Shown in pieces: positions 304 to 42,029 of a stretch of DNA of 64,000 nt. The position numbers were made by a program, and so were the translations under genes. Location of the stretch: assembly GCA_002448285.1 (NCBI GenBank), contig DJWX01000011.1:185907-249906 (forward strand). Direction: 5' to 3'. Origin of the DNA: Candidatus Ruminimicrobiellum ovillum (lineage in GTDB: Bacteria > Elusimicrobiota > Endomicrobiia > Endomicrobiales > Endomicrobiaceae). Every line of letters starts with the position of its first letter. Within the stretch, counting starts at the first letter, position 1. Below the pieces are notes generated by a model. The model was not told the origin of the DNA. It saw nothing but the letters and a program-made list of their open reading frames with translations, and did no database searches.

Positions 304-1122
304 CTACATTGCAATAATGGTAACACCTGCTTGTTTTGCTTTTGCCATAACTAAATCTTTATCCAATATTAGAGTAGAATCCGCCTCTATTATCATTGCT
401 CGGATTTTATTGCTTTCCAAAGTATCTACGGTTCTTGTTCCTATTACGGGAACATCAAATCTAAAATCCTGGTTCGGTTTTGCAACTTTTACAACTATTG
501 CGTTTTCTCCGCCCAAAGAATATGCTCTTTTTATGCACTCGTCTGTTCCTTCTATTGACTCTACAGCCAAAACCGATTTATCTTTAACGACTACCGTTTG
601 ACCGATATCAAGTCCGGCAATACTTTTTGCCATTTTAAAGCCAAACTGTGCATCTTTGTCTTCATCGGAATTTAATTTCTTACCGACAATAAGACCTTTC
701 GGCGCAAGTAAATGTTTCAAGTATATGTGTGAGGGCAAAAATTTTATTCCGTCTTTTTCAAATTCTCTGACTACGGCACCTAAAATCGTATCTGTTTTTT
801 TATTCACTAAAGATGTCATTATTTTAAGTGCTCTTAAATCCATTGTGATTGCAGAATAAATTTTTGCATGTTTAACTTGACCTACCATTATGGCAGTATC
901 AATATTTCTGTCTTTAAAAGTATCTATAATTTTTTGAATTTTGCCGACGGACAGCCACACCGTTTCATCACAAAAATTTTCAATGTCTTTATCGGCTTCT
1001 TCTTTTAGTGCAACGGTAACGACTTTGTCGCCCTGTTTTTTTATTTCTTGAGCAACAAGAAAAGGGAACCTTCCGTTACCTGCTATCATTCCTATGGTTT
1101 TCATAACTATTTTGGTCTGCAA
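304..1122 (-). CDS. lpxI: UDP-2,3-diacylglucosamine pyrophosphatase LpxI (DUF1009 family)
   Basis: IGMIAGNGRFPFLVAQE N-terminus. C-terminal DIGQTVVVKD..LAVESIEGTDECIKRA...VVKVAKPNQDFRFDVPVIG matches the LpxI signature. Sits next to lpxA. Confidence 0.75.
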   Translation of the reverse strand: MQTKIVMKTIGMIAGNGRFPFLVAQEIKKQGDKVVTVALKEEADKDIENFCDETVWLSVGKIQKIIDTFKDRNIDTAIMVGQVKHAKIYSAITMDLRALKIMTSLVNKKTDTILGAVVREFEKDGIKFLPSHIYLKHLLAPKGLIVGKKLNSDEDKDAQFGFKMAKSIAGLDIGQTVVVKDKSVLAVESIEGTDECIKRAYSLGGENAIVVKVAKPNQDFRFDVPVIGTRTVDTLESNKIRAMIIEADSTLILDKDLVMAKAKQAGVTIIAM

Positions 1123-1877
1123 ATTCCTCTTTGAGATTTTTTTATGAAAACAATTATATCTTTGACATAAACAGATGAAGATAATTCTTCTTCTATTTTT
1201 GCTACGGCATCATTTAATGTTAAGTGCGAAGCAAACAAAATTTTATAAGCATGTTTTATATTTTCTATCTCGGCAATAGGAACTCTTTTTCTTTTAAGTC
1301 CTACCAAATTCAAACCGAATAAATTCGCTCTGTCACCTTGTGCCTGCATATACGGAATTATATCCATACTTACCATAGAACCGCCGCCGGTAACAACATT
1401 TTTACCGATTTTAACAAACTGATGAACAGCGGTAAGTCCGCCCATAACAACTCCGTCACCGACTTCAACATGACCGGCAATTGCACAACAGTTTGCAATT
1501 ATACAATTATCTCCCAAAATACAATCATGAGCAACATGTGCACATGTCATAATAAGACAATTTTTTCCTACAACGGTTTGACCGCTTGCACTGGTACCTC
1601 TGTTAATTGTCGCAAATTCTCTAACCGTCGTGCCGTCTCCTATTATTGCAATTGTTTTTTCTCCGGCATACTTTAAATCTTGAGGCGGAGCACCTATTGA
1701 TGCATGAGAAAATATTTTACAATTTTGACCTATTCTTGCACATTCTATCGTTGCATGCGCTCCGATAAAGGTTCCATCTCCTATTGTAACATCTTCACCT
1801 ATTACAGCATAAGGTCCGATTTCTACATTTTGTCCGATTACTGCAGATTTATCTATTATTGCCGTACTATGTATCAT
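1107..1877 (-). CDS. lpxA: Acyl-ACP--UDP-N-acetylglucosamine O-acyltransferase
   Basis: MIHSTAIIDKSAVIGQNVEIGPYAVIG hexapeptide repeats, LpxA length, and lipid A gene context. Confidence 0.9.
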   Translation of the reverse strand: MIHSTAIIDKSAVIGQNVEIGPYAVIGEDVTIGDGTFIGAHATIECARIGQNCKIFSHASIGAPPQDLKYAGEKTIAIIGDGTTVREFATINRGTSASGQTVVGKNCLIMTCAHVAHDCILGDNCIIANCCAIAGHVEVGDGVVMGGLTAVHQFVKIGKNVVTGGGSMVSMDIIPYMQAQGDRANLFGLNLVGLKRKRVPIAEIENIKHAYKILFASHLTLNDAVAKIEEELSSSVYVKDIIVFIKKSQRGICRPK

Positions 1878-1878
1878 A

Positions 1879-3228
1879 TTATTTCTCCCTGTCTACTATA
1901 ATAAACATAAATTCGGCTTCTGCCGCCAACTTACCATCAACAAAAGCTTCTCCTCTTACTTTACCTTTTCTTCCGCTGTCTCTTATAACTTCAACCTTTA
2001 ATTCCAACATATCTCCGGGAATAACTGTTTTTCTGAATTTAACTTTATCTATTCCCATAAAATATGCCAAACAATTTCTTAATGCAGGTCTTGATAAAAA
2101 CATAACACAAGATGTCTGTGCCATAGCTTCAACAATCAAAACTCCCGGCATTATAGGCTGTCCCGGAAAATGTCCTTGAAAGAAAGGCTCATTTCCGCTT
2201 ACACATTTATATCCGACAGCTTTTTTATCTCCCGCTCCGATCAATTTAACTCTGTCTATCATAAGAATAGGATATCTGTGAGGAATAATTCTTTGAATTT
2301 CAGCACTGTTAAATACCGTTACTTTTTCATCGGAAACAACTTGTTCTTCTTGTTTTTTTGGAACATCCACTTTTGGTTCTCCTTTATCTATAACAGCTTT
2401 AGAAACAAATTCTTTTATAAAACTTACATTACTTTTATGTCCCGGTTTTTCGGCAACCAATCTTGCTTTTATCGGTTTACCCGCCAAAGAAATATCGCCG
2501 ATTAAGTCCAATATTTTATGTCTTACAAACTCGTTATCAAATCTTAACGGTTCTTTATTATATATACCATTAGGTCCTATAACTATTGCATTATCCAAAC
2601 TTCCGCCTTTTGCAAGACCGTTTGATTGTAATGCTTCAATTTCATAATCAAAACAAAAAGTTCTTGCGGGAGCAATATCGTTAACATAAGATTCCTTTGT
2701 TATTTCAAATTTTGCCTGTTGATGAGATAAAAAAGGATGATCGTATCCTATAGTACAATCTATTTCCAATTTATCACTCGGATAAGCAACGATTTTCGTG
2801 TTCCCGGATGTAAAAGTAACAGGTTCTTTTATTGTATAAAAGTCTTTATCAGCATCTAATTCTTTTATGCCGGACTCAAAAATTTTCTGCGCTATTATTT
2901 TTGCACTGCCGTCCATAATTGGCGGTTCATTATTATTTATCTCTATTATTAAATTATCTATCTCCAATGCAAAACAAGCAGATAATATATGTTCTATCGT
3001 ATGAATTTGAACATCTCCGGATTGAATAGTCGTTCCTCTTATCGCCGCCTCCGCAGATAAACTGTTCCAATCCGCTTTTATGTCGGGCTTGTTAGGTAAA
3101 TCGACTCTAATAAAATGTATGCCCGTATTTTTTTCGGCAGGTTTGAATACCATCTTACTTTTATTACCTGTATGTAAACCTATACCTTCAATACTGAACT
3201 CTTTTTCAATTGTTGTCTGTTTTGCCAT
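1879..3228 (-). CDS. lpxC/fabZ: Bifunctional UDP-3-O-acyl-GlcNAc deacetylase / 3-hydroxyacyl-ACP dehydratase (LpxC-FabZ fusion)
   Basis: The N-terminal ~280 aa are LpxC-like ([24 protein letters not shown]). The C-terminal ~150 aa are FabZ-like ([36 protein letters not shown]). Confidence 0.9.
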
Positions 3229-3230
3229 AA

Positions 3231-4253
3231 TTATTCCTCTATATTTAACTTTTTTATTACTTTCTTAACTTGTGAAAACAACTCCGGTAATTTTTTTATT
3301 AAAACCTGAGATTCCAAATGTTTTCTGTATGGTTGTAACGGATGACCGGAAACAATCTGATTATCTTTTACATTACCGCTTATACCGCTTTTTGCTCCGA
3401 CCATTACATTATTACCTACAGTTATATGACCGACAATTCCCACTTGCCCGCCAAGTGTTACTTTGTTGCCTATTTTTGTCGAACCGGCAATACCTACTTG
3501 AGAAACGATTATAGTACTTTCACCAACCTGAACATTATGTGCTATCATAACCAAATTATCTATTTTTGTGTTATTTCCTATTGATGTTTTCCCTATTGCG
3601 GCTCTATCGATTGTAGTGTTAGCACCTATTTCAACATTATTTCCGATTTCAACATGTCCGATTTGCGGAATTTTTTCCCCTGTTGCGGCAAAGCCAAAAC
3701 CGTCTCCGCCGATAACAACTCCGGGATGAATTATGCAATTATCACCGATTATTGTTCTTTCTCTTATCGTAACATTCGGATAAATCAAACAATTCTTACC
3801 TATAACGACATCGCTTCCTATAAAAGTATTAGCTAATATTTTTGTATTATCTCCTACTATCGTATTATCTTCAATAACAACATTGTGTCCTATTGTAATA
3901 TTTTTACCTAAAATAACCGTTTGTTCTATTGTTGCTTTCGGGCTTACGCCGGGTTTTATTTTATCCAATCTTTGTTTATCTATCAAAACTAACATCTTCG
4001 CAAAAGCAAGTTGCGGATCTTTCACTACTATAAGATTTTTACCCTTATATTCTTCAACGTTTATATCTTCTCCTACGAATATTGCACTGGCCTTTGTATC
4101 TTTTAAATAGTGTGTATATTTTTTGTTTCCTAAAAAAGATATATGCCCTACCATAGCATCTTGAATAGCACCGACACCTACAATGACACAATCTTCCTGC
4201 CCTATAATTTTTCCGTTAACAATACCGGCAATTTCTTTTAAAGTTAATTTCAT
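3231..4253 (-). CDS. lpxD: UDP-3-O-acylglucosamine N-acyltransferase
   Basis: [13 protein letters not shown]-terminus, a long run of left-handed beta-helix hexapeptide repeats, and a C-terminal helical tail. Confidence 0.9.
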
Positions 4254-4267
4254 TTTTACCTCTTATA

Positions 4268-7200
4268 TTAGAAAACATTTCCTATTGTAAAGTAGAATTG
4301 CTGTAAATCCTCGCCTCTCTTATGATTTAATCCGTATCCCCAATCAAGTCTTAACGGGAATACCGGTGTCGCAAATCTTATACCGAAACCGAAACCTGAT
4401 TTCAAATAATAAGAATTTGTTTCATCATTATCTGTTCCGAAGGCAAATTTGATATGATTTATATCCTTCCATGTTCCGCCGATATCATAGAAGAAAGCTC
4501 CTTGTAATATAGTTCTTTTATTTTCTTGAACTATAGGGAATTTATATTCAACATTTGCCACAGCCATTACTTTACCGCCGTTATAAGGTCCGACTTCAGT
4601 TCTGTATTTATAACCTCTTATCGTATCGGCTCCGCCGACATAATATTTTTCATACAAAGGAACATCGGAAGAAGAGCCGTAACTTTCTATCCAACCGGTA
4701 TTAATATTAACCGAAAGCACAAATTTCCAGAATGTAGGGAAGAACCATGTTCCTCTTACCGAATTTCTAACATAATTAACATTTCCGCCCAAAGGTCCTC
4801 CAGCAACACTTATACCATAAGAATATCTTGCACCTTTTGATGCATCATAAATATAATCTCTCGTATCATAAACAATTTGAGCTCTCACACTGGATGTTCT
4901 GTCTTTTGCCAAATCGGGATCATTCATAATTTCTTCTTTAAGTTCATCATCATCTATATCGAAAATTCTTACATGTTCGTAAGTGTAACCGAATAACAAA
5001 GCTATCTTGTCGTCAACTCTCGGACTTATAGAAACGGAACCTCCAAGTCTTCCTTCTCTGTAAGCATCGCTTGTATTATGATAATCTCTCAATCTTTCTA
5101 TGTTATATAAAGACAACCCCAAACTCATGGCTTTTCCCAAAAACCAAGGTTCGGTCCAATCTATTTCGTAATTTTGTCTTCTTGCACCGAATTCCCATAA
5201 CAAATTCAATTTTTGTGCTCTGCCGAATAAATTCATATGTTGCAACTGAATAGAACCGACAAATTTATCAACGGAAGAATAACCCGCACCGGCAGTTATC
5301 ATACCCGGTTTACCTTCCGTTATCGAAAAAGCCAAATTCATAATATCAGGTTGACCGGTAGGAGCAATGTTAGGTTCTGCTCCGTCGATAAAACCTAAAT
5401 TATAAATTTTCTCCATACTTCTTCTTACTTTACCGGAAGAGAAAACATCTCCCGGCATAAGTAAAATTTCTCTTCTTATCGTATTATCTTTCGTATTTGT
5501 TAAGCCATCCACATAAATATCGCCAACATAAACTATATTATTTTCCTGTATATTAAAATCCACATTTACAACATTTTCTATTATTTTTTTTCTTTCAAAC
5601 TTAGCTATTTTATTTTCTATTTTAGTTTTTTTCTTTTGAAGTTTCTTTAATTTTTTATCGGCAAAATCATTCTTACCGGCTTCATTACCGTTTATATCTA
5701 TTACAAGATTATCCTCTATATCAAGATGCTCTCTTTTTTCTTTTATTTGTTCGTTGATTGCATCTAATTGTTCCTGTAACTTTTCCTCTTTTTTATTCTG
5801 CTTTTCCAATTTCTTTTCTTGTTTCTCAAGTTTTTTCTTTTCTTTTGCTATTAACTTTTCTTTTTCTTTTTCGGCTTTTACCAGTTGTTTTTCTAATTTA
5901 ACTTTTTTCTTTTCTAACTTTTTTTCCTGCTTTGCGGTAAGAACAAAATCAGCACCGCTTTCAGCTCTTTGATTAACTTCATCGATATCACTCTGTATCA
6001 ATTGCTCTTTATTTTTTTGTTTCAAAACTTTACTTTCTCTCTTTTCCAATTCTTTATGAGCTTTCAACAATTTCTTTTCCAATTTAGCTTTTTTCTTCTC
6101 TAATTTTTCTCTTTGTTTTGCCGTAAAATCACTATATTCTATATACTCCAAAGATTGATCAATATCGGCTATTTTATCCTTTATATCCTGTTCTTTGCTG
6201 TTTTGATTTAAAACCTCGCTTTCTCTGTTTCTCGTTTTATATTTAGTTCTCTCTAATTTTCTATTTAATTTTTTTAATTTTTTATCAACCGATTTTTGGT
6301 TTATTTTAGTATCCAATTGATAGTCTATACCGTCTATATCTTCCTGTATCAAAACTTCTTTTTCCGTTTTTTTGGAACTAAGTCCTTCCTGCATTAAATT
6401 ATCGTTACTTTTTGAAAAGTCGGGAGCAATGTAAGAGTGCAGATATCCTCTATTGGAATAATCATCGTAAACTTTATTTAATAGCTCTAATATTTTTTCC
6501 TGATTAAATATTTCGTTTTTCTTTATTGTGGAATGTTTAGACAAATCTTTGGAAGATATAACATAGTTACCTTCAAAATCTATATCTCCCATCTTATATC
6601 TTGCACCTTCATTAACTCTTAAAGTAATAAACATTTTCGTTCTTGCATCATCGTATGCTATTTCCGGTTCGTCTATCGAAAAATCCATAAAACCGCGATT
6701 TAAATAAAACTTCTTTATCGATGCCATATCATTTTTTAAAGTTTCTTCTTTAAATACTTTTTTCTTCTTGGTTTTTGCCAACTTCTTAATTTTTTTATTT
6801 TTAAAACTTCTTACACCTTCCACATACAAATCACCTACCAAAACTTTATTATTTTCGGTTATAAGAAAAGTTATTGTCATTGTATTTGTATCTTCGTCGG
6901 TAGTGGGATATACTTCCATTTGACAATCGGCATATCCTTTATCTTTATATAGTGTAAGTATTTTTCTTTTAGACTCTTCCAATTCAACGAAATTATAAAA
7001 ATCTTTTTCTTTTAAAGTAATTTCGCCTTTTAATTTTCCCACGGAAAATTGTTTATTTCCTTTAAAAACGATTTTCTTTATATACGGTTTTTCATCCAAT
7101 TTAAACTTAACTATTTTGTTCTCTTTATCAACGGACAAAGAAGCATCTTCGAAATAGCCCAAGCCTAAAATCGTTCTTAAATCATCCCTTGCGACAGATG

Positions 7201-7372
7201 CCGCATAAACTTTACCTTTTTTCAACTGAATCTCGGAACGAACCGTTTTCGGTTTTACATTTTGCAACCCGTCAAAAACAACATCTTTTATTCTGAAAAT
7301 AGTATCATCATCCGCAAATAAAGCGGGAACACTTATAAAAATGAACAATATTGCAAGAAAAAATTTTTTCAT
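4268..7372 (-). CDS. bamA: Outer membrane protein assembly factor BamA with a large coiled-coil insertion
   Basis: Signal peptide MKKFFLAILFIFISVPALFA, POTRA-like repeats, and a C-terminal Omp85 barrel ending ...LQQFYFTIGNVF. The protein is 1034 aa because of a K/E-rich insert at about aa 321-599. Confidence 0.85.
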   Translation of the reverse strand: MKKFFLAILFIFISVPALFADDDTIFRIKDVVFDGLQNVKPKTVRSEIQLKKGKVYAASVARDDLRTILGLGYFEDASLSVDKENKIVKFKLDEKPYIKKIVFKGNKQFSVGKLKGEITLKEKDFYNFVELEESKRKILTLYKDKGYADCQMEVYPTTDEDTNTMTITFLITENNKVLVGDLYVEGVRSFKNKKIKKLAKTKKKKVFKEETLKNDMASIKKFYLNRGFMDFSIDEPEIAYDDARTKMFITLRVNEGARYKMGDIDFEGNYVISSKDLSKHSTIKKNEIFNQEKILELLNKVYDDYSNRGYLHSYIAPDFSKSNDNLMQEGLSSKKTEKEVLIQEDIDGIDYQLDTKINQKSVDKKLKKLNRKLERTKYKTRNRESEVLNQNSKEQDIKDKIADIDQSLEYIEYSDFTAKQREKLEKKKAKLEKKLLKAHKELEKRESKVLKQKNKEQLIQSDIDEVNQRAESGADFVLTAKQEKKLEKKKVKLEKQLVKAEKEKEKLIAKEKKKLEKQEKKLEKQNKKEEKLQEQLDAINEQIKEKREHLDIEDNLVIDINGNEAGKNDFADKKLKKLQKKKTKIENKIAKFERKKIIENVVNVDFNIQENNIVYVGDIYVDGLTNTKDNTIRREILLMPGDVFSSGKVRRSMEKIYNLGFIDGAEPNIAPTGQPDIMNLAFSITEGKPGMITAGAGYSSVDKFVGSIQLQHMNLFGRAQKLNLLWEFGARRQNYEIDWTEPWFLGKAMSLGLSLYNIERLRDYHNTSDAYREGRLGGSVSISPRVDDKIALLFGYTYEHVRIFDIDDDELKEEIMNDPDLAKDRTSSVRAQIVYDTRDYIYDASKGARYSYGISVAGGPLGGNVNYVRNSVRGTWFFPTFWKFVLSVNINTGWIESYGSSSDVPLYEKYYVGGADTIRGYKYRTEVGPYNGGKVMAVANVEYKFPIVQENKRTILQGAFFYDIGGTWKDINHIKFAFGTDNDETNSYYLKSGFGFGIRFATPVFPLRLDWGYGLNHKRGEDLQQFYFTIGNVF

Positions 7373-12840: not shown

Positions 12841-12856
12841 TTTAATTTATACCAAA

Positions 12857-12927
12857 CTCCGAGACCAGGATTCGAACCTAGACGAAGGGATCCAAATTCC
12901 CTTGTGCTACCATTACACTATCTCGGA
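12857..12927 (-). tRNA. tRNA-Gln (anticodon UUG), CCA not encoded
   Basis: Minus strand reads TCCGAGA-TA-GTGTAATGGTAGCAC-A-AGGGA-ATTTGGA-TCCCT-...-GGTTCGAATCC-...-TCTCGGA-G. The cloverleaf can be drawn by hand and the anticodon loop is A-U-UUG-G-A. Confidence 0.85.
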
Positions 12928-12933
12928 ATTAAA

Positions 12934-13235: not shown

Positions 13236-14093
13236 CTATTTGCTGACTTCGAATGAGCTCGCAACCCAAACATTCCAGCCACATTTTTTTAATTCATTTA
13301 AGATAAAATCTAAATTTTCTTTATCATGAACTAAACCAAAAACAGTAGCTCCGGAACCCGACATCAAACTCGCACACCCTAAATCTTCAAGAACTTCCCT
13401 TATTTGTTTTATTTCTTGATACTCTTCAAAGATAAAATCTTCAAACCTATTAAAAAAAAGATCCTTTGCACTTTCAAAATCAAACACACCTTTTTCAAGG
13501 CTTCTGATAATTTTACTAATTTTACGGGGATTTGTCAATGGAAATTTTACTTTGGAATAAGCATGCGGAGTAGATACTCCGAAATTTGGTTTTACCAAAA
13601 CAAAATCCAACGATAATTTTGTGTTTATTTTTTCAACAATATCGCCTATGCCCGAAATTTTTGCCGTTCCGCCCGTCATAAAAAAAGGAACATCTGCACC
13701 CAATTCGGCTCCTGACTGTTCCAAATTTTTTATGTCGTCATTTATGTCCCATATTTTATTTAAAGCAAGAATTGTCGCAGCAGCATCGGAAGAACCTCCG
13801 CCCAAACCGGCACCCATAGGAATATTTTTTGTAAGCTTTATTTTTACACCGCTATTTATGTTATATTTTTCTTTAACTTTTTCGGCGGCTTTATAAACAA
13901 GATTTTTTTTGGTATCAAATAAATCCGCATTATCGCAAACAAGTTCTATTTTGTTATCTTTAATTTTTGTAAACTCTAAAATATCAAACAAAGAAACGGT
14001 ATGCATAACGGATTCTATGTTATGATATCCGTCCGGTCTTTTGTTTATGATTTCCAAATATAAATTAATCTTGGCCGGTGCTTTTACTATCAT
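13236..14093 (-). CDS. ispE: 4-diphosphocytidyl-2-C-methyl-D-erythritol kinase
   Basis: MIVKAPAKINLYLEIINKRPDGYHNIESVM and the GHMP kinase motif PMGAGLGGGSSDAAA. Start moved to Met16. Confidence 0.9.
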   Translation of the reverse strand: MIVKAPAKINLYLEIINKRPDGYHNIESVMHTVSLFDILEFTKIKDNKIELVCDNADLFDTKKNLVYKAAEKVKEKYNINSGVKIKLTKNIPMGAGLGGGSSDAAATILALNKIWDINDDIKNLEQSGAELGADVPFFMTGGTAKISGIGDIVEKINTKLSLDFVLVKPNFGVSTPHAYSKVKFPLTNPRKISKIIRSLEKGVFDFESAKDLFFNRFEDFIFEEYQEIKQIREVLEDLGCASLMSGSGATVFGLVHDKENLDFILNELKKCGWNVWVASSFEVSK

Positions 14094-16251
14094 CGTTTGT
14101 CTGCCCGATAAATTTTTGTAAATCCGGAAGTGATACATTTGACGATTTTGTCAAATCGCATACACACTTAAAACCGTTTTTTTCAGCTATAAAAGTTGCC
14201 TTTGACGGAAATTTTGAAATGTTATTAAAAGTCTTATACGAATTAAATTTCAAGTCAAATGAATTTGTTTTTATAAACTCCTTAAACATTCCGCTAGCGG
14301 AATCTATCTTTATTGTGTATTCGTTATTTTGATAAATAATTTCTTTCCCTTTTTGTTTCATATCCGAAGAGAACAATAAAGTTATAAAATCTTTTGATAA
14401 TATAAGTTTTGCAAAGTCAAACATGGATGTAAAATCTTCGGGAATATTTTCTTCCATTGCTTGCGGATAAAACTCAATATTATCGTTTATATAAACACTT
14501 CCGCCCTGAAAAGATAGTTTCGGAGGAAATTCAAAAAGCATTCCGTATTTTCTTGCAAACAGAACGGACATGTAAGAAGACACTGATACGCCCTTCATTT
14601 TTATGTTAATTTTATAACCGGACTTTAAAGATGCGATTCTGTGAAAATTCAATATTGCTCTTTCGGCAACAACTTTATATTTTTCTTGTTGCAAATCTTT
14701 TTCCTGTGCAAATTTTTTATCCAACAAATTCAATTTTTTCTTTGCGGTTTTGGAACCCAAATCGTAAGCAACGGCATATGCTAACCACGATTGAGATAAT
14801 TTTTTAAGTTCTATACTTATATCCCCCAAATGCTCGTAGATATCTCTATCAAAAACTTTGGGTTGTGTGTTTGCCGCAGCGAAAATATATTTTTCTGCCA
14901 ACTCATAATTTCTTTTTTTGTAATATAACCAACCCAACGAATCCAAGTATGCCGGAACATTCGGTTGCAACTTCACGACTTTTATAAGCATTTGTTCGGC
15001 TTCGTCCAAATGTATCGTCTTTTCCGTATAACTGTAAGCCAAATAATTTAGAGCTTTAACATTATCCGGTTCAACTGCTATTATTTCCTTTAAGAGCTGT
15101 TCTGCTTTATTAAAATTTTTAAGTTTATCGTATGAAAGAGCCAAATAAAATTTAGCTTCGTTAAAATCCGGTTTTAAATATAAAGATTCTTCTAAAACCT
15201 TTTTAGCTTTTTCATATTTTTTTGAATCTATATAATTTAAACCTGCCAAATATAATATTTCGGAATTTAACGGTTCTTTTTCCAATGCATTGTCAAGATA
15301 TTTTTCCGCGGATTTATAATCCTGTTTTAATGCATAATAATAACCTAACCTTGTATAATTTGCCGCCGTAGGTTCCAATTTTACTATATGTTCAAAAACA
15401 TCTATCGCATCATCAATTTTATCTTGTTTTTCATATATCATTCCCAATAAATAATTTAAAATAACATTGTTCGGTGCGGTTTCTTTTGCTTTTAAAACTA
15501 TTTCTTCGGCTTCGTCATATTTTTTTTCTTCGAAATAACATTTGCCGAGATATGTTAATATTGCAACATTTCCCGAAAAAAGTTTTGCATATTCTTTATA
15601 TTCCTGTATTGCAAGTTTATATTCTTTTTTGTTTTCATAAATTCTGGCTCTTGCCAAATAACCTTCCTGTGCTTCGGATTTTATTTCATTAACTTTTTTA
15701 TATGATTGCAGAGCTTCATCGAGCATACCGAGTTTTTCCTGCGTTAAACCCAGTTGAAAATATCCTTCTGCGGATTCAGGTTGTTGTTCCAAAAATTTTG
15801 TCCAATAATCAATTGATTCTTTTAGTTTGTTGTCGGAATAGTAATATGCGGCCAAATATACGGTTGCCATTTCGTTTTCGGGTTCAAGTTCCAAAACTCT
15901 TTCCCAACATTGTTTTGCCGAAAGCATTTCATTTATTGAAAGATAAAAAGAACCTAAAAACATTTGTGTTTTAACATTATCGTTTTCAAGTTCTTGAAGT
16001 TTTTTTGCACTCTCCAATGCTTTTGTAACATCTCCCTGCTGCAAATAAACAAGTGCTAAATCTTTATAAACGGTTGTAGCGTCCGTATCGTAAGATAAAG
16101 TTCTTTCATATTCGGAAACAGCAACATCCGATTTTCCTTTTTTTAATGCAAGTAATCCCTTTATATAGGATTTATATCCGCTGTAACTTGCATAAGAAAA
16201 GCTTTCAAAACAGAATATCAATGCAACCGTTAAACTTAATATTTTTTTCAT
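14065..16251 (-). CDS. Secreted TPR-repeat protein with a ~206-aa non-TPR C-terminal domain (possibly LolB/DUF4292-like)
   Basis: N-terminal signal sequence and at least 10 TPR-like 34-aa repeats (AxxxYxxAL..P patterns). The C-terminal beta-rich domain starts at about aa 523. Confidence 0.6.
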   Translation of the reverse strand: MKKILSLTVALIFCFESFSYASYSGYKSYIKGLLALKKGKSDVAVSEYERTLSYDTDATTVYKDLALVYLQQGDVTKALESAKKLQELENDNVKTQMFLGSFYLSINEMLSAKQCWERVLELEPENEMATVYLAAYYYSDNKLKESIDYWTKFLEQQPESAEGYFQLGLTQEKLGMLDEALQSYKKVNEIKSEAQEGYLARARIYENKKEYKLAIQEYKEYAKLFSGNVAILTYLGKCYFEEKKYDEAEEIVLKAKETAPNNVILNYLLGMIYEKQDKIDDAIDVFEHIVKLEPTAANYTRLGYYYALKQDYKSAEKYLDNALEKEPLNSEILYLAGLNYIDSKKYEKAKKVLEESLYLKPDFNEAKFYLALSYDKLKNFNKAEQLLKEIIAVEPDNVKALNYLAYSYTEKTIHLDEAEQMLIKVVKLQPNVPAYLDSLGWLYYKKRNYELAEKYIFAAANTQPKVFDRDIYEHLGDISIELKKLSQSWLAYAVAYDLGSKTAKKKLNLLDKKFAQEKDLQQEKYKVVAERAILNFHRIASLKSGYKINIKMKGVSVSSYMSVLFARKYGMLFEFPPKLSFQGGSVYINDNIEFYPQAMEENIPEDFTSMFDFAKLILSKDFITLLFSSDMKQKGKEIIYQNNEYTIKIDSASGMFKEFIKTNSFDLKFNSYKTFNNISKFPSKATFIAEKNGFKCVCDLTKSSNVSLPDLQKFIGQTNDDSKSTGQD

Positions 16252-21305: not shown

Positions 21306-21959
21306 TTATTTTTCTTCGGAAATTTCTTCTTCTGTTACTTTTTCTTCTTCTTTCTTCTTTGCCACTTTTACCCTTGCAGGTCTCATAAGTTTCCCGTTTA
21401 GTTTATATCCGTTTTGATAAACCGCAAGTACTGTTCCTTCTTCCGCTTCATCCGTTTCAACCTGATCCAACGCTTCGCATACATTGTGGTCGAACGGTTT
21501 ATTCAAACATTCTATTTTTTCTACACCTTCTTCCTTCAACATTTTGCTGAATTCGTTGTATATCATTTCAAGACCGACTTTAATACTTTTTAAATCTTGC
21601 CCTGCTCTGACACTTATCATTGCCTGTTCGAAAACATCGTATATACTTATATTTCTTTCCAATATTTTTGCTTTACCGAAATTTATATATTCACCTTTTT
21701 CTTTTTCCGTTCTGTTTCTTAATGTTTGATATTCGGCAACACTTCTTAAATATTCCGCTTTATATTCATCTGCCTGTTTTTGTTTTTCTTCCAAAGACTG
21801 TTTCAAAATATCAAGTTCCGATAATTTTACTTCTCTTGCTATATCTTCAACTTTTTCAGCTACTTTTTCTTCGGCTTTTTCGATTTTTTCTTCTGCAATC
21901 TTTTCTGCTTTCGCTTCTATTTTTTGTTCTTCTTTTTCTTTATTCTTCATCTTGCTCAT
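21306..21959 (-). CDS. grpE: Nucleotide exchange factor GrpE
   Basis: K/E-rich N-terminus, a YLRSVAEYQTLRNRTEKEK helix, and a C-terminal beta domain ...GYKLNGKLMRPARVKV. Confidence 0.9.
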   Translation of the reverse strand: MSKMKNKEKEEQKIEAKAEKIAEEKIEKAEEKVAEKVEDIAREVKLSELDILKQSLEEKQKQADEYKAEYLRSVAEYQTLRNRTEKEKGEYINFGKAKILERNISIYDVFEQAMISVRAGQDLKSIKVGLEMIYNEFSKMLKEEGVEKIECLNKPFDHNVCEALDQVETDEAEEGTVLAVYQNGYKLNGKLMRPARVKVAKKKEEEKVTEEEISEEK

Positions 21960-25054: not shown

Positions 25055-26335
25055 TTAGTTAACAATTTTTGCCGTTATGAATATAGTAAGTTCATATCTC
25101 GATTTGTTTTTCGTTTCACTCTTAAATAAGTATCCCAATATAGGAATATCACCCAATAACGGAACTTTGTTTACTGTCGTATCTTCCGTTTCTCTTATTA
25201 AACCGCCTATAGCCGCAGTTTCTCCGCTTCTTAACATTAAAGTAGTTGTTGATTTACTTGTATTAATAACAGGTGTATTTTCTTCTCCGATTGTTTCACC
25301 TGTTCTATAACTTTGTTCCGGAGATATCGATAATACTATCGAACCGTCTCTGTTTATTTGAGGTTTTACTTTTAATTTTATACCGGCTTCTTTAAATGCC
25401 ATTGTTCCCGTTGTATTTCCTTCGGTAGAAGTTGTTTTACTTTCCAAATAAGGAATTTCTTCAACAATATCTATCGATGCTTCCTGATTGTTCAAAACAA
25501 GAAGTTTAGGATTCGATAATACTTTAGCATCTTTATCTTCAACACCGGCTTCAAATGTTCCGTTTATACTCCAATCATCACCTTCAAGAATAGAAACTCC
25601 TACTCTTGCAAAAGATTTTGTTAAACCTAATCCCATAACCGAACCTATAGGAGTATCATAAACAAAATTTTTGTTGTTCATTTTTGAAGGATCAACGGTA
25701 GGATTAAGTAATCCGTCTCTATAAGTTTCGTTCCATCTTGTTCCTATTGCCGTTCCGTGAGACAAGTTAATATCTACGATTTTAGCTTCAAGTAAAACCT
25801 GTTGTGTAGGAACATCCAAAGATCTTATAAGACCTTCCATTTTATCTATACTATCGGCCAAATCCGTAATAATTAAAGAGTTTGTTCTTGTATCGGAAAC
25901 GATTTTACCGCCTTTTGATAATCTTGTTGACAAAATTTTCTCTAAATCGGAAGCCTTTGCATAGTTACAAAAAATAACTCTGGAAACCGTAATGTGGCTT
26001 CCGTCCGCTTTACTCTTAATAACATATATGTTTGCATCACCCTGTTTAACATAATACAAATCATAAGTATCAAGCAAAGCATTAAGAGCTTCTTCCGCAG
26101 TAACATCCTGCAAAGATAACATTATCTTCTTTTGATATAAATCCGTGGAAGAAATCAACTTCATACCTGTCTTCATACTTAAAACGTTTAAAACAGTGTA
26201 TAGTGAAGTTCCTTGAAAATCGATAGAAATTAAGTTTGTGGAATGTAAACCTCCGCCACTCTCTTTTTCCGGCGCAGAATAAGAAGTAGTAAATAGTAAA
26301 GAAACAGCTAATACCGTCAACAAAAGTTTTTTCAT
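25055..26335 (-). CDS. Secretin (PilQ/GspD family, short form)
   Basis: Signal peptide, N0/N1-like domains, and the secretin C-domain motif VPLLGDIPILGYLFKSETKNKSRYELTIFITAKIV. Confidence 0.9.
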   Translation of the reverse strand: MKKLLLTVLAVSLLFTTSYSAPEKESGGGLHSTNLISIDFQGTSLYTVLNVLSMKTGMKLISSTDLYQKKIMLSLQDVTAEEALNALLDTYDLYYVKQGDANIYVIKSKADGSHITVSRVIFCNYAKASDLEKILSTRLSKGGKIVSDTRTNSLIITDLADSIDKMEGLIRSLDVPTQQVLLEAKIVDINLSHGTAIGTRWNETYRDGLLNPTVDPSKMNNKNFVYDTPIGSVMGLGLTKSFARVGVSILEGDDWSINGTFEAGVEDKDAKVLSNPKLLVLNNQEASIDIVEEIPYLESKTTSTEGNTTGTMAFKEAGIKLKVKPQINRDGSIVLSISPEQSYRTGETIGEENTPVINTSKSTTTLMLRSGETAAIGGLIRETEDTTVNKVPLLGDIPILGYLFKSETKNKSRYELTIFITAKIVN

Positions 26336-26349
26336 TTTCTCTCCTTTTT

Positions 26350-27261
26350 TTAATTCTCCATTTTTATTGTAAATACTGAACCATACTTACTGACTTTTAT
26401 GTTGTTTCCGTTAATTTGCGTTATTTTAAACCCATTATAAACGTCTCCAACATAATAAAATTTACCGCCTATTATAGCCATAGGATGTTGCTTTTCATAC
26501 ATTATACCGTCTATAACTATATTAGGTTTTTCAACTTTTACAGCACCTCCGCCACCGCTTTTAACCGTTTTCTCAGGAACATAAAAATAAAAAGGTGTCT
26601 TTGGAATCGGTTCGAAATCTCTCCATGTTTGAATATAACCAACATCTTTTGCTTTTTCTATTTTATCGGATATTTCTTTAAAATACCCGGCTTTACGAAT
26701 ATCATCTTCTATAAAATCAATCGTATTTCTTCCGCTGAAACAATCGTTTACTTCCGAAGAAAAAAGAATAGGAACGGTTTTTATCTCCACATTTCCTTTG
26801 TAATCCATAACAAGAGACAAAACTTTAGAATACCTTTCCAATTCAAATAAAAATTTACAAATTTGTTTGTATGTCGCTTTTATCTTTAGAGTTATTTCTA
26901 TACTGTTATCTTTTTTTTCTTGAACTATGGAATCATCTTTTCCCATATGAATATCGGTTTCTTTTAACAACTCCAAAATTCTCACTTTATATGCATTTAT
27001 ATTTTGTTCGTTCGAATAAAAAGTGTCTTTATAAATAGAAAAGACTTCCGCTAAAGATTCATCCAACTCATCCATCTTTGTTTGTATGCTGTTAAAATCA
27101 TCCAACTGTGAATTTATATTTGAAAATCTTTCGTATACACTTTTTCTTTCTTTAAATTCTTTATCATAGCTGCCGTAAATATAGTTGTATACCAAGTATG
27201 CTATAAACAAAGAAAACATCAAATTCAATATAAAAATTAAAACTCTTTTACTTTGATTCAT
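26350..27261 (-). CDS. PilO-like protein fused to a PilP/GspC-HR-like C-terminal beta domain
   Basis: One N-terminal TM helix, a coiled coil, a PilO-like core (ITLKIKATYKQICKFLFELERYSKVLSL), and a C-terminal segment IVIDGIMYEKQHPMAIIGGKFYYVGDVYNGFKITQINGNNIKV. Confidence 0.5.
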   Translation of the reverse strand: MNQSKRVLIFILNLMFSLFIAYLVYNYIYGSYDKEFKERKSVYERFSNINSQLDDFNSIQTKMDELDESLAEVFSIYKDTFYSNEQNINAYKVRILELLKETDIHMGKDDSIVQEKKDNSIEITLKIKATYKQICKFLFELERYSKVLSLVMDYKGNVEIKTVPILFSSEVNDCFSGRNTIDFIEDDIRKAGYFKEISDKIEKAKDVGYIQTWRDFEPIPKTPFYFYVPEKTVKSGGGGAVKVEKPNIVIDGIMYEKQHPMAIIGGKFYYVGDVYNGFKITQINGNNIKVSKYGSVFTIKMEN

Positions 27262-27279
27262 AAATTATATCCCCAATAC

Positions 27280-27858
27280 TTAATTTGCTTTTTTTAACCC
27301 TATCTTCAATTTTAGAGCATTAACTTCTCTTTTATAAATATTCTGTTTTTCCATGGTTTCTATTACCATATCATTTTTAATACACTCGCTTTTCTCAAAA
27401 GCAGAATTTAAAATTGGAGCATAATCATAGAAACTGGTTAATTTTTTTACTTTTTCTTTGCTTATAAACCAATCTGAAGTTGCGGCTTCTCCCGCCATAG
27501 AAAGATTTATAATAGAATCTCCCTCGGGCAGGAATGTTCCGAAATCCTTTAAAATAGAGCCGTAATTCGTGCTTCCTTTTATTTGTTCTTTTACAGCCAA
27601 TATTTTATAGTAATAAGTTTCCCACTCTTTTTCTATTTCTATAATACTGTTCTGTGTTCTTTTTTGTTCGATTTTATTCTTTGTATCAATTATTTTTTTG
27701 TTGTAATTTACGGTTTCGAAATGTCTAAAAACCGTAAATAAAAATATCAATATTATTCCTATGTGAACAAAGAAATTTAAAAGTTTTAAAAATCTTACAA
27801 GAGTACTTCCGTATTTTTCTTTTGTAATAACACCTTCTATATAATTAAAGCTATACAT
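27280..27858 (-). CDS. PilN-like bitopic inner-membrane pilus alignment protein
   Basis: Short cytoplasmic N-terminus, a single TM (FFVHIGIILIFLFTVF), a periplasmic coiled coil, and a position between pilM and the pilO-like gene. Confidence 0.5.
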   Translation of the reverse strand: MYSFNYIEGVITKEKYGSTLVRFLKLLNFFVHIGIILIFLFTVFRHFETVNYNKKIIDTKNKIEQKRTQNSIIEIEKEWETYYYKILAVKEQIKGSTNYGSILKDFGTFLPEGDSIINLSMAGEAATSDWFISKEKVKKLTSFYDYAPILNSAFEKSECIKNDMVIETMEKQNIYKREVNALKLKIGLKKAN

Positions 27859-28873
27859 TTGCTTTTTTCTCCTTTTCGAGTGCCAAACCTAAAGCAACAG
27901 GCAAATAAAAACCTTGCGGTTTATTTACATATCCCACAAACTTGTTATTATCCAACGGATTCCATTTTTCGGTAGGAATACCTAAAGTATCCTGAATAAA
28001 ATTATCTATTCCTTCCGTCATAGCTCCTCCGCCGGTAAGCACTATTCTGTCAACGGAAACTATAAATTGTCTTGTTATACAATGTTCTATAGTTCTAAAC
28101 AAAGTTTCTATTAAAGTTGCAACATCTTTTTTCAAAATATTTTTCATGTTAAAATTTATTGTTTGTCTTAAATCTTCTCTTCTCTTTAACTCTTCGGATA
28201 ATTTTTCGGGAATCGAATAAAAGTTTGAAATATCTCTCGTTATATCTTGACCTCCGAAATCTATATCTTTAATAAAAACCAACTCTTTACCGTTCATTGC
28301 AATAACATTTGAAACATTGTAACCGATGTTTATTAAAATAATATTTTCGGAATTCTTATAGTTCGGCCCGAACTCAACAAAAGCATTTGCTAAAGCAAAA
28401 TCTTCCAAAGTAACACTTGAAACGGAAAGTGTATCAATTGTATTTATAAAAGAAAACTTTGCATTAACTTTTTCCATAGGAGCTGCGGAAAAAATAATGC
28501 TGTATTCTTTGTCGGAATTATTTTTTATAACAGAAAAAGAAGAATAAGTTTTACCTAAATCTTCGGAAATTGTGTTAACAACCTCGTTATTAACCTGATC
28601 TTTCAGGTTAATCAACTTATTTCTTTTTAACACAAAATCTCTATTAATTATATCTTTACCGCCAACAGCCAAACATACGGTATCTTCCAAGCAACCTAAT
28701 TTTTTCAAAACGGATGTCAATTTTTCCGTCTTTTCCGTTCCGGAATAGTTTGAAATATCCACTACAGCCGAAACTATCGAATATTCTTTCTTTTTCTTTT
28801 CAGTATTCGTAATTTTACAGATCTTTACAAACTTGCTGCCCAAATCAATGCCTATCAAGATTGTTTCCTCCAA
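27851..28873 (-). CDS. pilM: PilM (actin-like ATPase-fold pilus assembly protein)
   Basis: IGIDLGSKFVKI, NIGYNVSNVI, and IVLTGGGAMTEGIDNFIQDTLGIP motifs. Confidence 0.8.
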   Translation of the reverse strand: MEETILIGIDLGSKFVKICKITNTEKKKKEYSIVSAVVDISNYSGTEKTEKLTSVLKKLGCLEDTVCLAVGGKDIINRDFVLKRNKLINLKDQVNNEVVNTISEDLGKTYSSFSVIKNNSDKEYSIIFSAAPMEKVNAKFSFINTIDTLSVSSVTLEDFALANAFVEFGPNYKNSENIILINIGYNVSNVIAMNGKELVFIKDIDFGGQDITRDISNFYSIPEKLSEELKRREDLRQTINFNMKNILKKDVATLIETLFRTIEHCITRQFIVSVDRIVLTGGGAMTEGIDNFIQDTLGIPTEKWNPLDNNKFVGYVNKPQGFYLPVALGLALEKEKKANV

Positions 28874-29547
28874 CCTAACATTCTTATATCATTTCTAAGT
28901 CTTGTATTACCACCTGCAGTTGGGGCATCCTTAAATTGTGTTGTTTCAAAATAATATATCACTGTTGACTCTATTCTACTTCCGTTTGCAACACTAACAT
29001 CCGCCCAAGCAGTACCAACAATTTTATATGTTTGTCGAGGATTGGTTTCCGTTGGATTATAAGTATGAGCAATAATACCATTTTCAGTTGAAGGAGGAGG
29101 ATTCAAAAATTCACAATAAACTGAAGCATGTATATGCGGATACATACTACTATCAATAACTTCGGGAACTCCACCACCATAAGCAATTGAAAAAAGAGAA
29201 CCATCATTAAAAAGAGACCATTGCCCACCAACAGTATTGGCCACCGCAGAAAACAAATATCCCTGTCCTCTAAATGGTAAAACACCTAAATCACCGAAAT
29301 TACCATCTGGATCATGAGCTGTTTCCGGAAACTGTGCCATATTTCTCTCCACAACAAAATCAATATAACCTCTTGCTCTTTCTACTATTGCCTCTGCAGC
29401 ATAATCCACTCTTATTTTCGTCTGATCATATGTATCCATAACACCTTGAGAAGAAACCATTTGCAAGGTTATATAGCCTATGATGGTCAATATCATCATA
29501 GACACAATTGTTATTAAAAGAATAGCTCCTTTATTATTTTTTATCAT
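28855..29547 (-). CDS. PilX-N / GspK-like pseudopilin (no Glu5)
   Basis: MIKNNKG-AILLITIVSMMILTIIGYITLQ hydrophobic N-terminus without the FTLxE signature, as seen in PilX_N/GspK proteins. Confidence 0.5.
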   Translation of the reverse strand: MIKNNKGAILLITIVSMMILTIIGYITLQMVSSQGVMDTYDQTKIRVDYAAEAIVERARGYIDFVVERNMAQFPETAHDPDGNFGDLGVLPFRGQGYLFSAVANTVGGQWSLFNDGSLFSIAYGGGVPEVIDSSMYPHIHASVYCEFLNPPPSTENGIIAHTYNPTETNPRQTYKIVGTAWADVSVANGSRIESTVIYYFETTQFKDAPTAGGNTRLRNDIRMLGWRKQS

Positions 29548-30182
29548 AATTCAACAGGACTCCCATTTTTTAAAATAATTCCATCCTGATTCCTCATCGT
29601 AAAACAAAAAGTTCTGTTTTGTCTTTTTGTAACACCGGGAACAACAGAATCTTCATAAACAATTCCTATCATTATATTTCCTAAATGATTACCTGCCCCC
29701 ATTTTATTCGGTCTATAAAAAAAAGCTCTCACATTATTCAGCACTAATATATCCGGTGATGATGATTCTGAAGTCCCCTCAGGCACACTTCTTAGATGCA
29801 ACTCTCTAGGAGCAAACATATTACTATTTCCGATATTAGAAGGATACGCATCAAAATGAGAACCATATTGTTCTATAAACTTGGCATCAGACGCAGGGCT
29901 AAAAGTATAAGTATCGATAACCTGTCTATTAAGATGTGTATCGTATCTTTCACATGTAATTTTGCCCTCTTCTATATTAATTCTATTTGATTCCGTTATA
30001 GATTTTTTTAATATCTCTTCAAAAAATTGTACATTGTTAAAATTTTTAGCCGTCTTACTTGTTTTAGAAAACATCTTATATGCGGATATTGTCATTGTAT
30101 ACGAAAAAAAGATAACAATAGCCGATAACAAAATAGCTACCATCATTTCAACTAAAGTAAAACCTTTTTTTATAAAAAACAT
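29544..30182 (-). CDS. Minor (pseudo)pilin with a prepilin-type N-terminal methylation motif
   Basis: MFFIKKG|FTLVEMMVAILLSAIVIFF. Confidence 0.75.
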   Translation of the reverse strand: MFFIKKGFTLVEMMVAILLSAIVIFFSYTMTISAYKMFSKTSKTAKNFNNVQFFEEILKKSITESNRINIEEGKITCERYDTHLNRQVIDTYTFSPASDAKFIEQYGSHFDAYPSNIGNSNMFAPRELHLRSVPEGTSESSSPDILVLNNVRAFFYRPNKMGAGNHLGNIMIGIVYEDSVVPGVTKRQNRTFCFTMRNQDGIILKNGSPVEL

Positions 30183-30195
30183 TAAAAAACCTCGC

Positions 30196-30705
30196 TTATT
30201 CCCATCTCTGAGAAATATACGTTACCAAAATTATTCTGTTTTTCTCAGCTAGCAATGCATTTGGAAAAGATGTTTCTCCATTATTCCACGGCCACGATGC
30301 TTCACATACAATTTGAGTACCCACATGATGTGTGATACCATCGGATGTTGTTCTATTATCCGGATGCACATGACAAGTATAATGAACTTTACAATCATCC
30401 CTAAGTATTTTATCAACTTTAAAATCATAAGTTGTTCGATCGGTAGTTCCTTGATTGATTGTAGATTTTGCAGTAGGATAAAAATTATTATCCTCTACCG
30501 TAGGATAATCACCGCCACCCTTAACCATTTCCATTTTTCTTACCAAATCGTGTAAAACGAAACTATAATCTTTGCTATCTTGTGCATGTTTATATGCAGA
30601 AGAAAAAAAAGATAAGCCATACACACTCACAATACCGATAATTATAACCGCTACCAAAACTTCTACTATGGTTGTTCCTTTTTGTTTTTTTAAATTAGAC
30701 ACCAT
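30196..30705 (-). CDS. Minor (pseudo)pilin with a prepilin-type N-terminal motif, Cys/His-rich globular domain
   Basis: MVSNLKKQKG|TTIVEVLVAVIIIGIV. Start moved to Met15, which has a GAGGA RBS 7 nt upstream. Confidence 0.7.
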   Translation of the reverse strand: MVSNLKKQKGTTIVEVLVAVIIIGIVSVYGLSFFSSAYKHAQDSKDYSFVLHDLVRKMEMVKGGGDYPTVEDNNFYPTAKSTINQGTTDRTTYDFKVDKILRDDCKVHYTCHVHPDNRTTSDGITHHVGTQIVCEASWPWNNGETSFPNALLAEKNRIILVTYISQRWE

Positions 30706-30715
30706 ATTTAATTCC

Positions 30716-31153
30716 TCAACCCAAATTTTCTTCATACACAATATCATCGGAACTTAATTTATAAGTGCCGACAATAGTAACCCCTCTTAAATCAACATCT
30801 CCATCCACAGGATAAACCGTTACAACAACGCCCTCTCTATTTGTTGCTCCGGACGAATTTTTGATCCTAGCTATATTAAATCTCTTAAAGTACTTATTTT
30901 GTCTGGCATCAATTTTTAATTCTTGAGAAAACTCAAGTTTTTTACCGGAAGCAGTTATAAAAAAGTCTGAATTTTGAACTCTATAAATTTTTTCCTGTGC
31001 AACTATTTTATCAATTAAAGCTCTTCCCTCATTAGCCATTGCTACTTTCATATGTCCCTTACCTGTAAAAAACCATGCGGAAGCCAAAATACCAATGATA
31101 ACCACAACAATCATAACTTCAATAAAAGTAAAACCTTTTACATTCGATTTCAT
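30716..31153 (-). CDS. Major pilin / GspG-like pseudopilin (no cysteines)
   Basis: MKSNVKG|FTFIEVMIVVVIIGILASA. It is the first pilin gene after the platform gene. The start could instead be at 31177. Confidence 0.75.
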   Translation of the reverse strand: MKSNVKGFTFIEVMIVVVIIGILASAWFFTGKGHMKVAMANEGRALIDKIVAQEKIYRVQNSDFFITASGKKLEFSQELKIDARQNKYFKRFNIARIKNSSGATNREGVVVTVYPVDGDVDLRGVTIVGTYKLSSDDIVYEENLG

Positions 31154-31169
31154 AAAATTTTTACCCTTT

Positions 31170-32411: not shown

Positions 32412-32430
32412 TTACAAAACACCTCACAAA

Positions 32431-39897: not shown

Positions 39898-39899
39898 AT

Positions 39900-40061: not shown

Positions 40062-40078
40062 ATTTTCCCCCGTGAAAA

Positions 40079-41863: not shown

Positions 41864-41886
41864 TTTTTCCTCTGTAAAAATTAAAC

Positions 41887-41960: not shown

Positions 41961-42029
41961 AGTTCCATTAAGTATACTTTATAATACCTGTCGGTTATTA
42001 TACAAAAAAGTTAATTAAAAATCTATGAA

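Follow-up and report, generated by a model that had tools for sequence, protein, structure and literature searches.

A lysine- and glutamate-rich, predicted coiled-coil insert in POTRA4 of BamA from Candidatus Ruminimicrobiellum ovillum

BamA of Candidatus Ruminimicrobiellum ovillum (Elusimicrobiota; Endomicrobiaceae) carries a 278-residue, lysine- and glutamate-rich (K/E-rich) insert inside its fourth POTRA domain (POTRA4), which we describe here from a 64,000-nucleotide stretch of DNA (contig DJWX01000011.1, positions 185,907 to 249,906 of the forward strand; hereafter the window, with positions counted from its first letter). Real and unusual, it makes this BamA a new structural variant, and full-text literature searches returned no description of comparable coiled-coil or lineage-specific POTRA inserts. 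The reading we favor, with a probability of about 0.7, is that the insert forms a coiled-coil arm on a BamA-only β-barrel assembly machine (BAM), an accessory that is labile in evolution. A first-pass annotation of this DNA had proposed that BamA carries a built-in Skp-like helical arm, with the gene for the chaperone Skp missing next door. The in-frame, basic helical hairpin arm in POTRA4 withstood analysis; the Skp-like label, which neither a profile nor a fold match bears out, did not. The arm is neither derived from Skp nor did it evolve in step with the loss of skp.

The insert and the BamA that carries it

The gene lies on the minus strand at 4268..7372 as a single open reading frame (ORF) of 1034 codons plus stop, with a signal peptide, and its product is a genuine BamA of Candidatus R. 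ovillum. The protein is 100% identical to the NCBI entry 'BamA [Candidatus Ruminimicrobiellum ovillum]' (P0001), and 17 contigs of several origins, one of them 1.11 Mb long, encode exactly this form. Against the TIGR03303 BamA equivalog model it reaches 489.7 bits, above the curated cutoff of 297.15. Pfam recognizes five POTRA stretches and the Omp85 barrel (PF01103) at residues 714-1034 (E=6.5e-62). A full-length AlphaFold2 model, built from a 101-sequence alignment with a mean predicted local distance difference test score (pLDDT) of 83, has five β-α-α-β-β POTRA units, of which POTRA4 is broken between β2 and β3, and a strand array over residues 690-1030 that, together with the PF01103 match, fits the 16-stranded Omp85 β-barrel. 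The protein is longer than usual, as the first-pass annotation had pointed out, the other Elusimicrobia BamAs in our survey measuring ~745-880 aa. Two distant Elusimicrobia BamAs (P0069 and P0070; 820 and 874 aa) are extended in another way, by ~50-100 aa of P/A/Q-rich low-complexity sequence sited between the signal peptide and POTRA1.

The domain boundaries can be laid out along the minus strand as follows. POTRA1-3 (residues 25-255; 6608..7300), delimited by AlphaFold2 elements and the Pfam POTRA stretches, are followed by the N-terminal part of POTRA4, β1-α1-α2-β2 (residues 256-322; 6407..6607), by the insert (residues 323-600; 5573..6406) and by POTRA4 β3 (residues 601-612; 5537..5572). 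POTRA5 (residues 613-689; 5306..5536) is modeled with strands at 615-622, 662-671 and 677-686 and helices at 629-633 and 646-657, and the barrel, placed by PF01103 and the modeled strands, fills residues 690-1034 (4271..5305). The strands that flank the insert are taken as POTRA4 β2 and β3 because of the order of the modeled elements (β1 259-268, α1 274-278, α2 291-307, β2 314-322, insert, β3 600-609). In a phmmer search of PDB sequences the two flanks align to Neisseria gonorrhoeae BamA up to residue 323 and again from residue 337, and the insert therefore takes the place of the POTRA4 β2-β3 turn. Alignment against 21 relatives sets its limits between ...YIAPDFSKS and VVNVDFNIQENN. An insert between the last two strands of POTRA4, at 5576-6412 (residues 321-599), is what the first-pass annotation had described, and these limits needed little more than refinement to 5573-6406.

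In composition the insert is 24.5% lysine, 14.4% glutamate and 10.4% leucine, contains no proline, tryptophan or cysteine, and has a net charge of +17. AlphaFold2 predicts helices at residues 337-355, 359-411, 418-472, 480-553 and 569-595, so that the whole of the segment between β2 and β3 is modeled as helical; four of these are long (53, 55, 74 and 27 residues), the longest corresponding to ~8-11 nm at 0.15 nm per residue. A separate model of residues 318-606 gave the same helices, again helix-only and with no β core. Confidence is highest for the first hairpin (359-412/418-472; pLDDT 88-97) and lower in the last third of the insert, and pLDDT falls below 50 at residues 325-333 and 551-570 of the full-length model. 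Structure prediction thus returned long helices, not disorder, and the YSDF, ADFVL and KNDF patches picked out at first pass turn out to be the turns that separate them. The heptad-like character is likewise borne out: a hydrophobic periodicity of 3.5 residues is significant in each of the four helices, with 0.037, 0.000, 0.003 and 0.013 of shuffles reaching the observed power. The pLDDT values and the antiparallel coiled coils found as structural neighbors suggest that the helices pack against one another. The hydrophobic seam is sparse, and the insert may in part behave as a single α-helix of the ER/K-like kind.

At the level of repeats, the insert is built from a 62-codon unit that recurs about four times, in tandem and in frame, in agreement with the three to four internal repeats seen at first pass. 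Local alignments between the protein units give z scores of 7.5, 11.6, 6.0 and 4.0, and none of 300 composition-preserving shuffles reaches the observed score. In the DNA there are repeat families of 91 nt (D1) and 40 nt (D2), spaced 186 and 276 nt apart and in frame. A lead-in (residues 323-348; 6329..6406, -), which comprises a low-confidence short helix and the start of the first long helix and is common to the 137-residue insert of a relative (P0026), precedes the units. Unit 1 (residues 349-411; 6140..6328, -) forms the predicted outward helix, matches unit 2 at z=7.5 and holds a copy of D2. Unit 2 (residues 412-474; 5951..6139, -), the predicted return helix with pLDDT 88-97, opens with the turn EYSDF and the conserved motif KLEKKKAKLEKKLLK, matches unit 3 at z=11.6 and contains the D1 copy at 6041-6131. 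Unit 3 (residues 475-556; 5705..5950, -) is a longer helix (480-553) that holds the D1 reference copy (5855-5945) and a local duplication of 74 nt at 5777-5915 detected by Tandem Repeats Finder. Unit 4 is truncated (residues 557-600; 5573..5704, -), a low-confidence linker and then the last helix, with a D1 copy at 5579-5669 and a match to unit 2 at z=6.0. A candidate source for the unit, the K-rich POTRA3 α1 segment of BamA itself, was rejected as not significant (z<=2.4).

Recurrence and selective constraint

Long-form BamAs (1009-1038 aa) fall into 22 protein clusters from independent sources, 21 of them besides that of the exact protein, and occur in independent metagenome-assembled genomes (MAGs) from sheep, yak and cattle rumen. 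This recurrence bears on the concern, already raised at first pass, that the insert might be an assembly artefact, and on its extensions, that it represents a frameshifted pseudogene, an in-frame mobile element or an intein. What speaks for such an origin is that the GC content of the insert lies below that of the rest of bamA. However, the low GC is accounted for by AAA and GAA codons (the coding strand is AAA/GAA-rich, at 27-29% GC), the reading frame is continuous and free of stop codons, as first reported, and many assemblies made independently, and many species, have the same architecture and differ from one another at synonymous sites. No target-site, terminal, direct or inverted repeats were found around the insert, no ORF of at least 80 aa crosses it on the opposite strand, and the insert searched alone matched no Pfam domain, OmpH included (E<=0.01). 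With neither flanking repeats nor domains, a mobile element or intein is effectively ruled out, and we give an artefactual or foreign origin essentially no credence.

The insert is under purifying selection. Ratios of nonsynonymous to synonymous divergence (dN/dS) were computed by the Nei-Gojobori method for pairs of long-form species within the query group, with dS of ~0.6-1.7, and amount to 0.07-0.17 for the insert, 0.02-0.07 for the POTRA domains and 0.006-0.05 for the barrel. A motif, KKLEKKKxKLEKKLxK, stands at the start of helices 2-4 with its K, E and L positions invariant, and this invariance and the heptad phase are kept across species whose inserts are only ~40% identical. Recurrence in many independent assemblies, combined with dN/dS of 0.07-0.17, argues that the insert is neither an artefact nor neutral junk.

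The second of these deserves a fuller hearing, as slippage or recombination could have driven a low-complexity K/E expansion at a permissive loop in a genome that is AT-rich and reduced. Such an expansion would have no function of its own and would need only to keep the frame and do no harm. The tandem in-frame repeats, the AAA/GAA-rich coding strand, a rate of evolution 3-10 times that of the rest of BamA, and lengths in close relatives of anywhere between 0 and 280 aa, with short forms nested among long ones, would all be expected of such junk. Linker insertions of 5 aa in E. coli POTRA4 are, moreover, not severe in effect (PMC3871556). Against this stand dN/dS values far under 1, the invariant K, E and L positions, the conserved heptad phase, and the fact that long-form species hold their length at 250-280 aa. 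It should also be considered whether K/E-rich segments are simply common in this genome. Among the ~19,700 aa of window ORFs only two proteins reach a K+E content of at least 40% over 60 residues, so such segments are rare among the proteins of the window and hardly a genome-wide habit. They are the insert and the N-terminus of GrpE (21306-21959, -), which has a K/E-rich extension of ~80 aa (MSKMKNKEKEEQKIEAKAEKIAEEKIEKAEEKVAEK...); that a second protein of the same window is extended in this way can also be counted on the side of junk. On balance we think junk unlikely.

Several points weigh against reading the constraint as function of an arm. In most pairs dS is close to saturation, and the essential barrel downstream enforces the reading frame regardless of what the insert does. 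The alignment of low-complexity repeats is uncertain as well, though misalignment would raise dN rather than lower it.

Distribution of the insert and its relation to skp

As the first-pass annotation noted, skp is missing from the bamA-lpxD junction: ORF coordinates leave a spacer of 14 nt (4254..4267, -), and no frame of the 64-kb window matches a Skp profile at E<=10. We surveyed related genomes by scanning GTDB species genomes, which yielded 79 Elusimicrobia bamA loci, and called junction skp with a hidden Markov model (HMM) made from 13 Endomicrobium Skp proteins. In 49 loci, from Endomicrobium, Endomicrobiellum and more distant Elusimicrobia, skp directly follows bamA, and the POTRA4 hairpin stretch is of normal size (8-13 residues as counted here). 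These 49 include three earlier loci for P0151, a weak Skp match that was set aside as belonging to an unrelated Elusimicrobia lineage with the order bamA-skp-lpxD.

The picture differs in what we call the ruminant clade, whose members (Proruminimicrobium, Praeruminimicrobium, Ruminimicrobiellum and their allies) have BamA cores at least 70% identical to the query. At every locus of this clade bamA is followed by lpxD within 5-141 nt and without skp, while the insert varies in length: six species have none (0 aa), eight have 17-45 aa, the P0026 lineage has 137 aa, and both the query group and the L013/L014 group reach 250-280 aa. The insert is thus variable or absent in close relatives, and the missing junction skp accompanies every insert length from 0 to 280 aa, which gives no support to a causal link between insert and skp loss. 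Junction skp is also missing, yet the POTRA4 hairpin is normal, in termite Endomicrobium, Parendomicrobium and Endomicrobiellum MAGs (L054, L056, L059, L083 and L061); skp has therefore been lost or relocated more than once in the Endomicrobiaceae.

In a bootstrapped neighbor-joining tree of BamA (insert removed), LpxD, LpxC-FabZ and LpxA (1654 columns), the closest sisters of the query group are the 17-aa forms L004/L016 (100%); the 19-45-aa forms L017/L055 join next (69%), and the long forms L013/L014 fall outside these (82%). The 137-aa form lies further out (100%), followed by Praeruminimicrobium (17 aa) and then by lineages with 0-29 aa. Since junction skp is missing clade-wide and short forms are nested among long ones, loss of skp from the junction predates the long insert and is uncoupled from it. 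Loss of junction skp is the older event, and short alleles have persisted, or re-emerged, without skp returning there.

This history is not without its difficulties. In L004/L016 the short loop reads GIKVELPKDDGIVD, almost as in Praeruminimicrobium (GIEVELPKDDGIVD), in conflict with the tree, and secondary deletion, allele exchange or parallel growth are possible explanations of the conflict. Every genome with a long insert lacks junction skp, too, and a late compensatory role of the insert for skp is possible. The first is a character conflict for the stepwise growth of the insert proposed below, and both count against the explanation we favor.

Some further features of the loop may be recorded here. 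The 17-aa loop extensions of L004/L016 and L018/L019 share GI[KE]VELPKD[DE]GIVD, and the four-gene tree parts them by long-insert lineages. In β3, every ruminant-clade form whose insert is short or missing has VDxxY, and nearly all long and 137-aa forms have V[ND]V[DS]F (IVDISF in L014/P0022); the C-terminal junction and the Phe in β3 are common to all long and 137-aa forms, unlike the short forms. Mosaic or recombinant short-loop alleles were sought by segment identity, by which L004, L017 and L055 are nearest the query group almost everywhere, with no clear mosaic.

Whether the insert could itself be a relic of skp was addressed by direct comparison. Two Elusimicrobia Skp HMMs gave no hmmsearch match to the insert at E<=10, hhalign against Skp/OmpH profiles returned probabilities of 0.2% and 3.6%, and Pfam OmpH (PF03938) had no match at E<=1 on the whole of BamA. 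Foldseek against the PDB gave no match at E<=1e-3, and its 50 listed matches do not include Skp. The neighbors that are listed are generic antiparallel coiled coils (EnvC, p85 iSH2, msmeg_4306, IpaB, Lsp1/Pil1 and SMC arms), none of them significant: p85 iSH2, IpaB 74-242 and msmeg_4306 reach target-normalized TM-scores of 0.34-0.66 over 150-178 aligned columns, and EnvC and the SMC arms lower ones of 0.18-0.42. With no profile, Pfam or fold match, the insert is not a fused or degenerate skp, and its resemblance to Skp is confined to being a basic helical hairpin.

Searches for Skp elsewhere in these genomes point in one direction. A single-sequence search with Endomicrobium Skp recovered 13 proteins and a profile search of 5.8 billion clusters 46; in this library, which carries no genome labels, none lies on the contigs of R. 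ovillum (1,110,486 bp), P0030 (748,728 bp) or P0026 (1,059,878 bp). An exhaustive profile search of 1.84 billion representatives gave 686 Skp matches, of which all at E<=1e-30 sit at Endomicrobium-type loci; none of the 686 is attributable to R. ovillum, P0026 or P0030, a result that does not by itself prove absence from the whole genome. The supplements of the Endomicrobia genomics paper contain no skp, ompH or surA entries. Taken together these results suggest that the Endomicrobium-type skp ortholog is gone from the R. ovillum genome, and a divergent OmpH elsewhere in it is possible. Skps of Elusimicrobia other than Endomicrobium (P0157-P0297; loci such as L045, L037 and L046) are 230-360 aa long and align to the 197-aa Endomicrobium profile in two pieces that lie apart, their middle (tentacle) region being apparently much longer.

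These data allow the more ambitious idea to be weighed, namely that the insert is a built-in Skp-like holdase that replaced the lost skp and holds unfolded outer-membrane proteins beside BAM. Its appeal is plain, as skp is missing at the junction in all long-insert genomes, a Skp of the Endomicrobium type could not be attributed to three genomes of the clade in two profile searches, and the arm is selectively maintained, basic and, like the Skp tentacles, predicted to form long helical hairpins. But the homology and fold comparisons gave no match to Skp, and the modeled insert has no β-barrel trimerization core. Its hydrophobic residues are on the heptad seam, where they would serve intramolecular packing, and an exposed hydrophobic cavity is therefore not evident. 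Junction skp loss, moreover, is ancestral to the ruminant clade, loops of 0-45 aa included, and is seen in the insert-less termite lineages as well, and short-insert lineages nested among long ones have not regained skp at the junction. The association also rests on one clade, and so on roughly one evolutionary event. We regard a Skp substitute as decidedly improbable.

A labile arm, its genomic setting and its place among known systems

In the explanation we favor, the β2-β3 hairpin of POTRA4 would have grown out into an arm, a long and basic antiparallel coiled coil. It probably arose inside the ruminant clade of Endomicrobiaceae through in-frame tandem duplication of a ~62-codon unit (helix plus turn) at an insertion-tolerant loop, by stepwise expansion from 0 to ~17, ~137 and finally 250-280 aa. 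Because it is constrained in Ruminimicrobiellum and absent or reduced in nested relatives, the arm is better seen as an accessory than an essential module. As β3 leads from the tip of the hairpin to the POTRA5 linker, the tip lies at the POTRA3-proximal end of POTRA4, and on topological grounds the arm may project from the POTRA3/4 joint into the periplasm. There it would lengthen the substrate-receiving POTRA arm by a rigid, positively charged element, and could provide a surface for docking or holding, or act as a spacer towards the cell wall. Arm orientation, bundle geometry and biochemical role are put forward here as proposals, whereas we regard as established the identity and position of the insert, its helical and heptad character, its origin from repeats, its distribution, its selective constraint and its lack of homology to Skp.

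BamBCD are reported to be absent from all Endomicrobiaceae (PMC11257099). In a lineage without BamB-D, and apparently without Skp, it is tempting to see the arm as a functional, newly evolved module that has taken over part of substrate capture, holding or positioning, as an analogue, though not a homologue, of Skp or BamB. We offer this reading tentatively. More remote is a role as an envelope ruler or tether, in which an 8-11-nm arm would reach the peptidoglycan or inner membrane and so position BAM or set periplasmic spacing, like the coiled coils of Lpp or OmpM. Helices of 53-75 residues would have the length for it, a strongly basic surface could bind anionic envelope polymers, and the top, if non-significant, Foldseek match is the periplasmic coiled coil of EnvC. 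Yet neither a domain nor a motif for binding peptidoglycan or anchoring in a membrane turned up in the Pfam search of the insert. Both its ends run back into POTRA4, leaving no free terminal domain, and close relatives do without the arm, so we hold such a role to be very improbable.

The genes downstream of bamA are those of lipid A synthesis, together spanning 304..4253 (-): lpxD (3231-4253), an lpxC-fabZ fusion (1879-3228), lpxA (1107-1877) and lpxI (304-1122; LpxI Pfam match), all on the minus strand and taken from the ORF list. Both the order bamA, lpxD, lpxC-fabZ, lpxA, lpxI and the Pfam families recur in relatives, as expected of a bamA neighborhood. The lpxC-fabZ gene is a single ORF of 449 aa whose counterparts in relatives match the Pfam families of LpxC and of FabA-like proteins; every Endomicrobiaceae locus examined has the fusion, and the genes are separate at a distant Elusimicrobia locus (L006). 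Seven kilobases from bamA, 14065-16251 (-) encodes a 728-aa secreted protein with many TPR repeats and a weak TPR_Slam match, and given the reported absence of BamD from Endomicrobiaceae it might be a candidate BAM accessory.

Elsewhere in the window are two pilus/secretion clusters, one at 25055-34116 (-) with a secretin (PF00263) and upstream pilin-like, PilM-like and ATPase-like ORFs, the other a Flp/Tad-type cluster at 37172-40582 (-) with RcpC/CpaB (PF16976). They agree with the published view that pilins are the sole appendages encoded by Endomicrobiaceae. A tRNA-Gln(TTG) is found at 12856-12928, and a tRNA-Glu(CTC) at 41886-41961 (-) falls within the called 5' end of a 460-aa serS-like ORF (40586-41968, -), whose true start is probably downstream, at MLDIKLF....

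With canonical BamA (E. coli, N. gonorrhoeae; TIGR03303, five PF07244 plus PF01103) this protein shares the signal peptide, the five POTRA domains, the 16-stranded Omp85 barrel, synteny with lipid A genes and, on both sides of the insert, alignment to solved structures. The difference lies in the POTRA4 β2-β3 turn, ~10 residues long in the canonical protein (~324-336 in N. gonorrhoeae) and replaced here by the 278-aa coiled coil. Skp/OmpH (PF03938) is alike in being periplasmic and basic with long α-helical hairpins, and its gene normally follows bamA directly, an order seen in Endomicrobium proavitum and at 48 further loci of the survey. Skp, however, is a free trimer with a cavity and a β-sheet trimerization body, whereas the insert is a single copy tethered in BamA without such a body, and its appearance does not coincide with the departure of skp from the junction. 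Generic antiparallel coiled coils share heptad-patterned amphipathic helices with the insert and have no sequence relationship to it; by comparison the insert is much richer in K and E, has a sparse hydrophobic seam and is embedded as a β-hairpin loop insertion. Lpp, and OmpM of diderm Firmicutes (PMC13018214), are likewise rod-like periplasmic coiled coils on an outer-membrane component. These are, in contrast, parallel trimers with a peptidoglycan link or an SLH domain at their end, while the arm would be an intramolecular antiparallel hairpin array, and Pfam found no wall-binding domain in it.

BamA is essential, highly conserved and a target for antibiotics and vaccines, and its POTRA domains are usually compact. 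A fused Skp substitute would be the more exciting claim, one that neither the distribution nor the homology tests support. What we have instead is a natural BamA with an arm of ~8-11 nm on POTRA4, constrained yet missing in sister lineages. The alleles with 0, 17, 137 and 280 residues make a ready comparative system for what the periplasmic face of BAM tolerates or exploits, in a setting where accessory lipoproteins, and perhaps Skp, are absent. They also illustrate how, by tandem duplication, an essential protein can acquire a new structural module.

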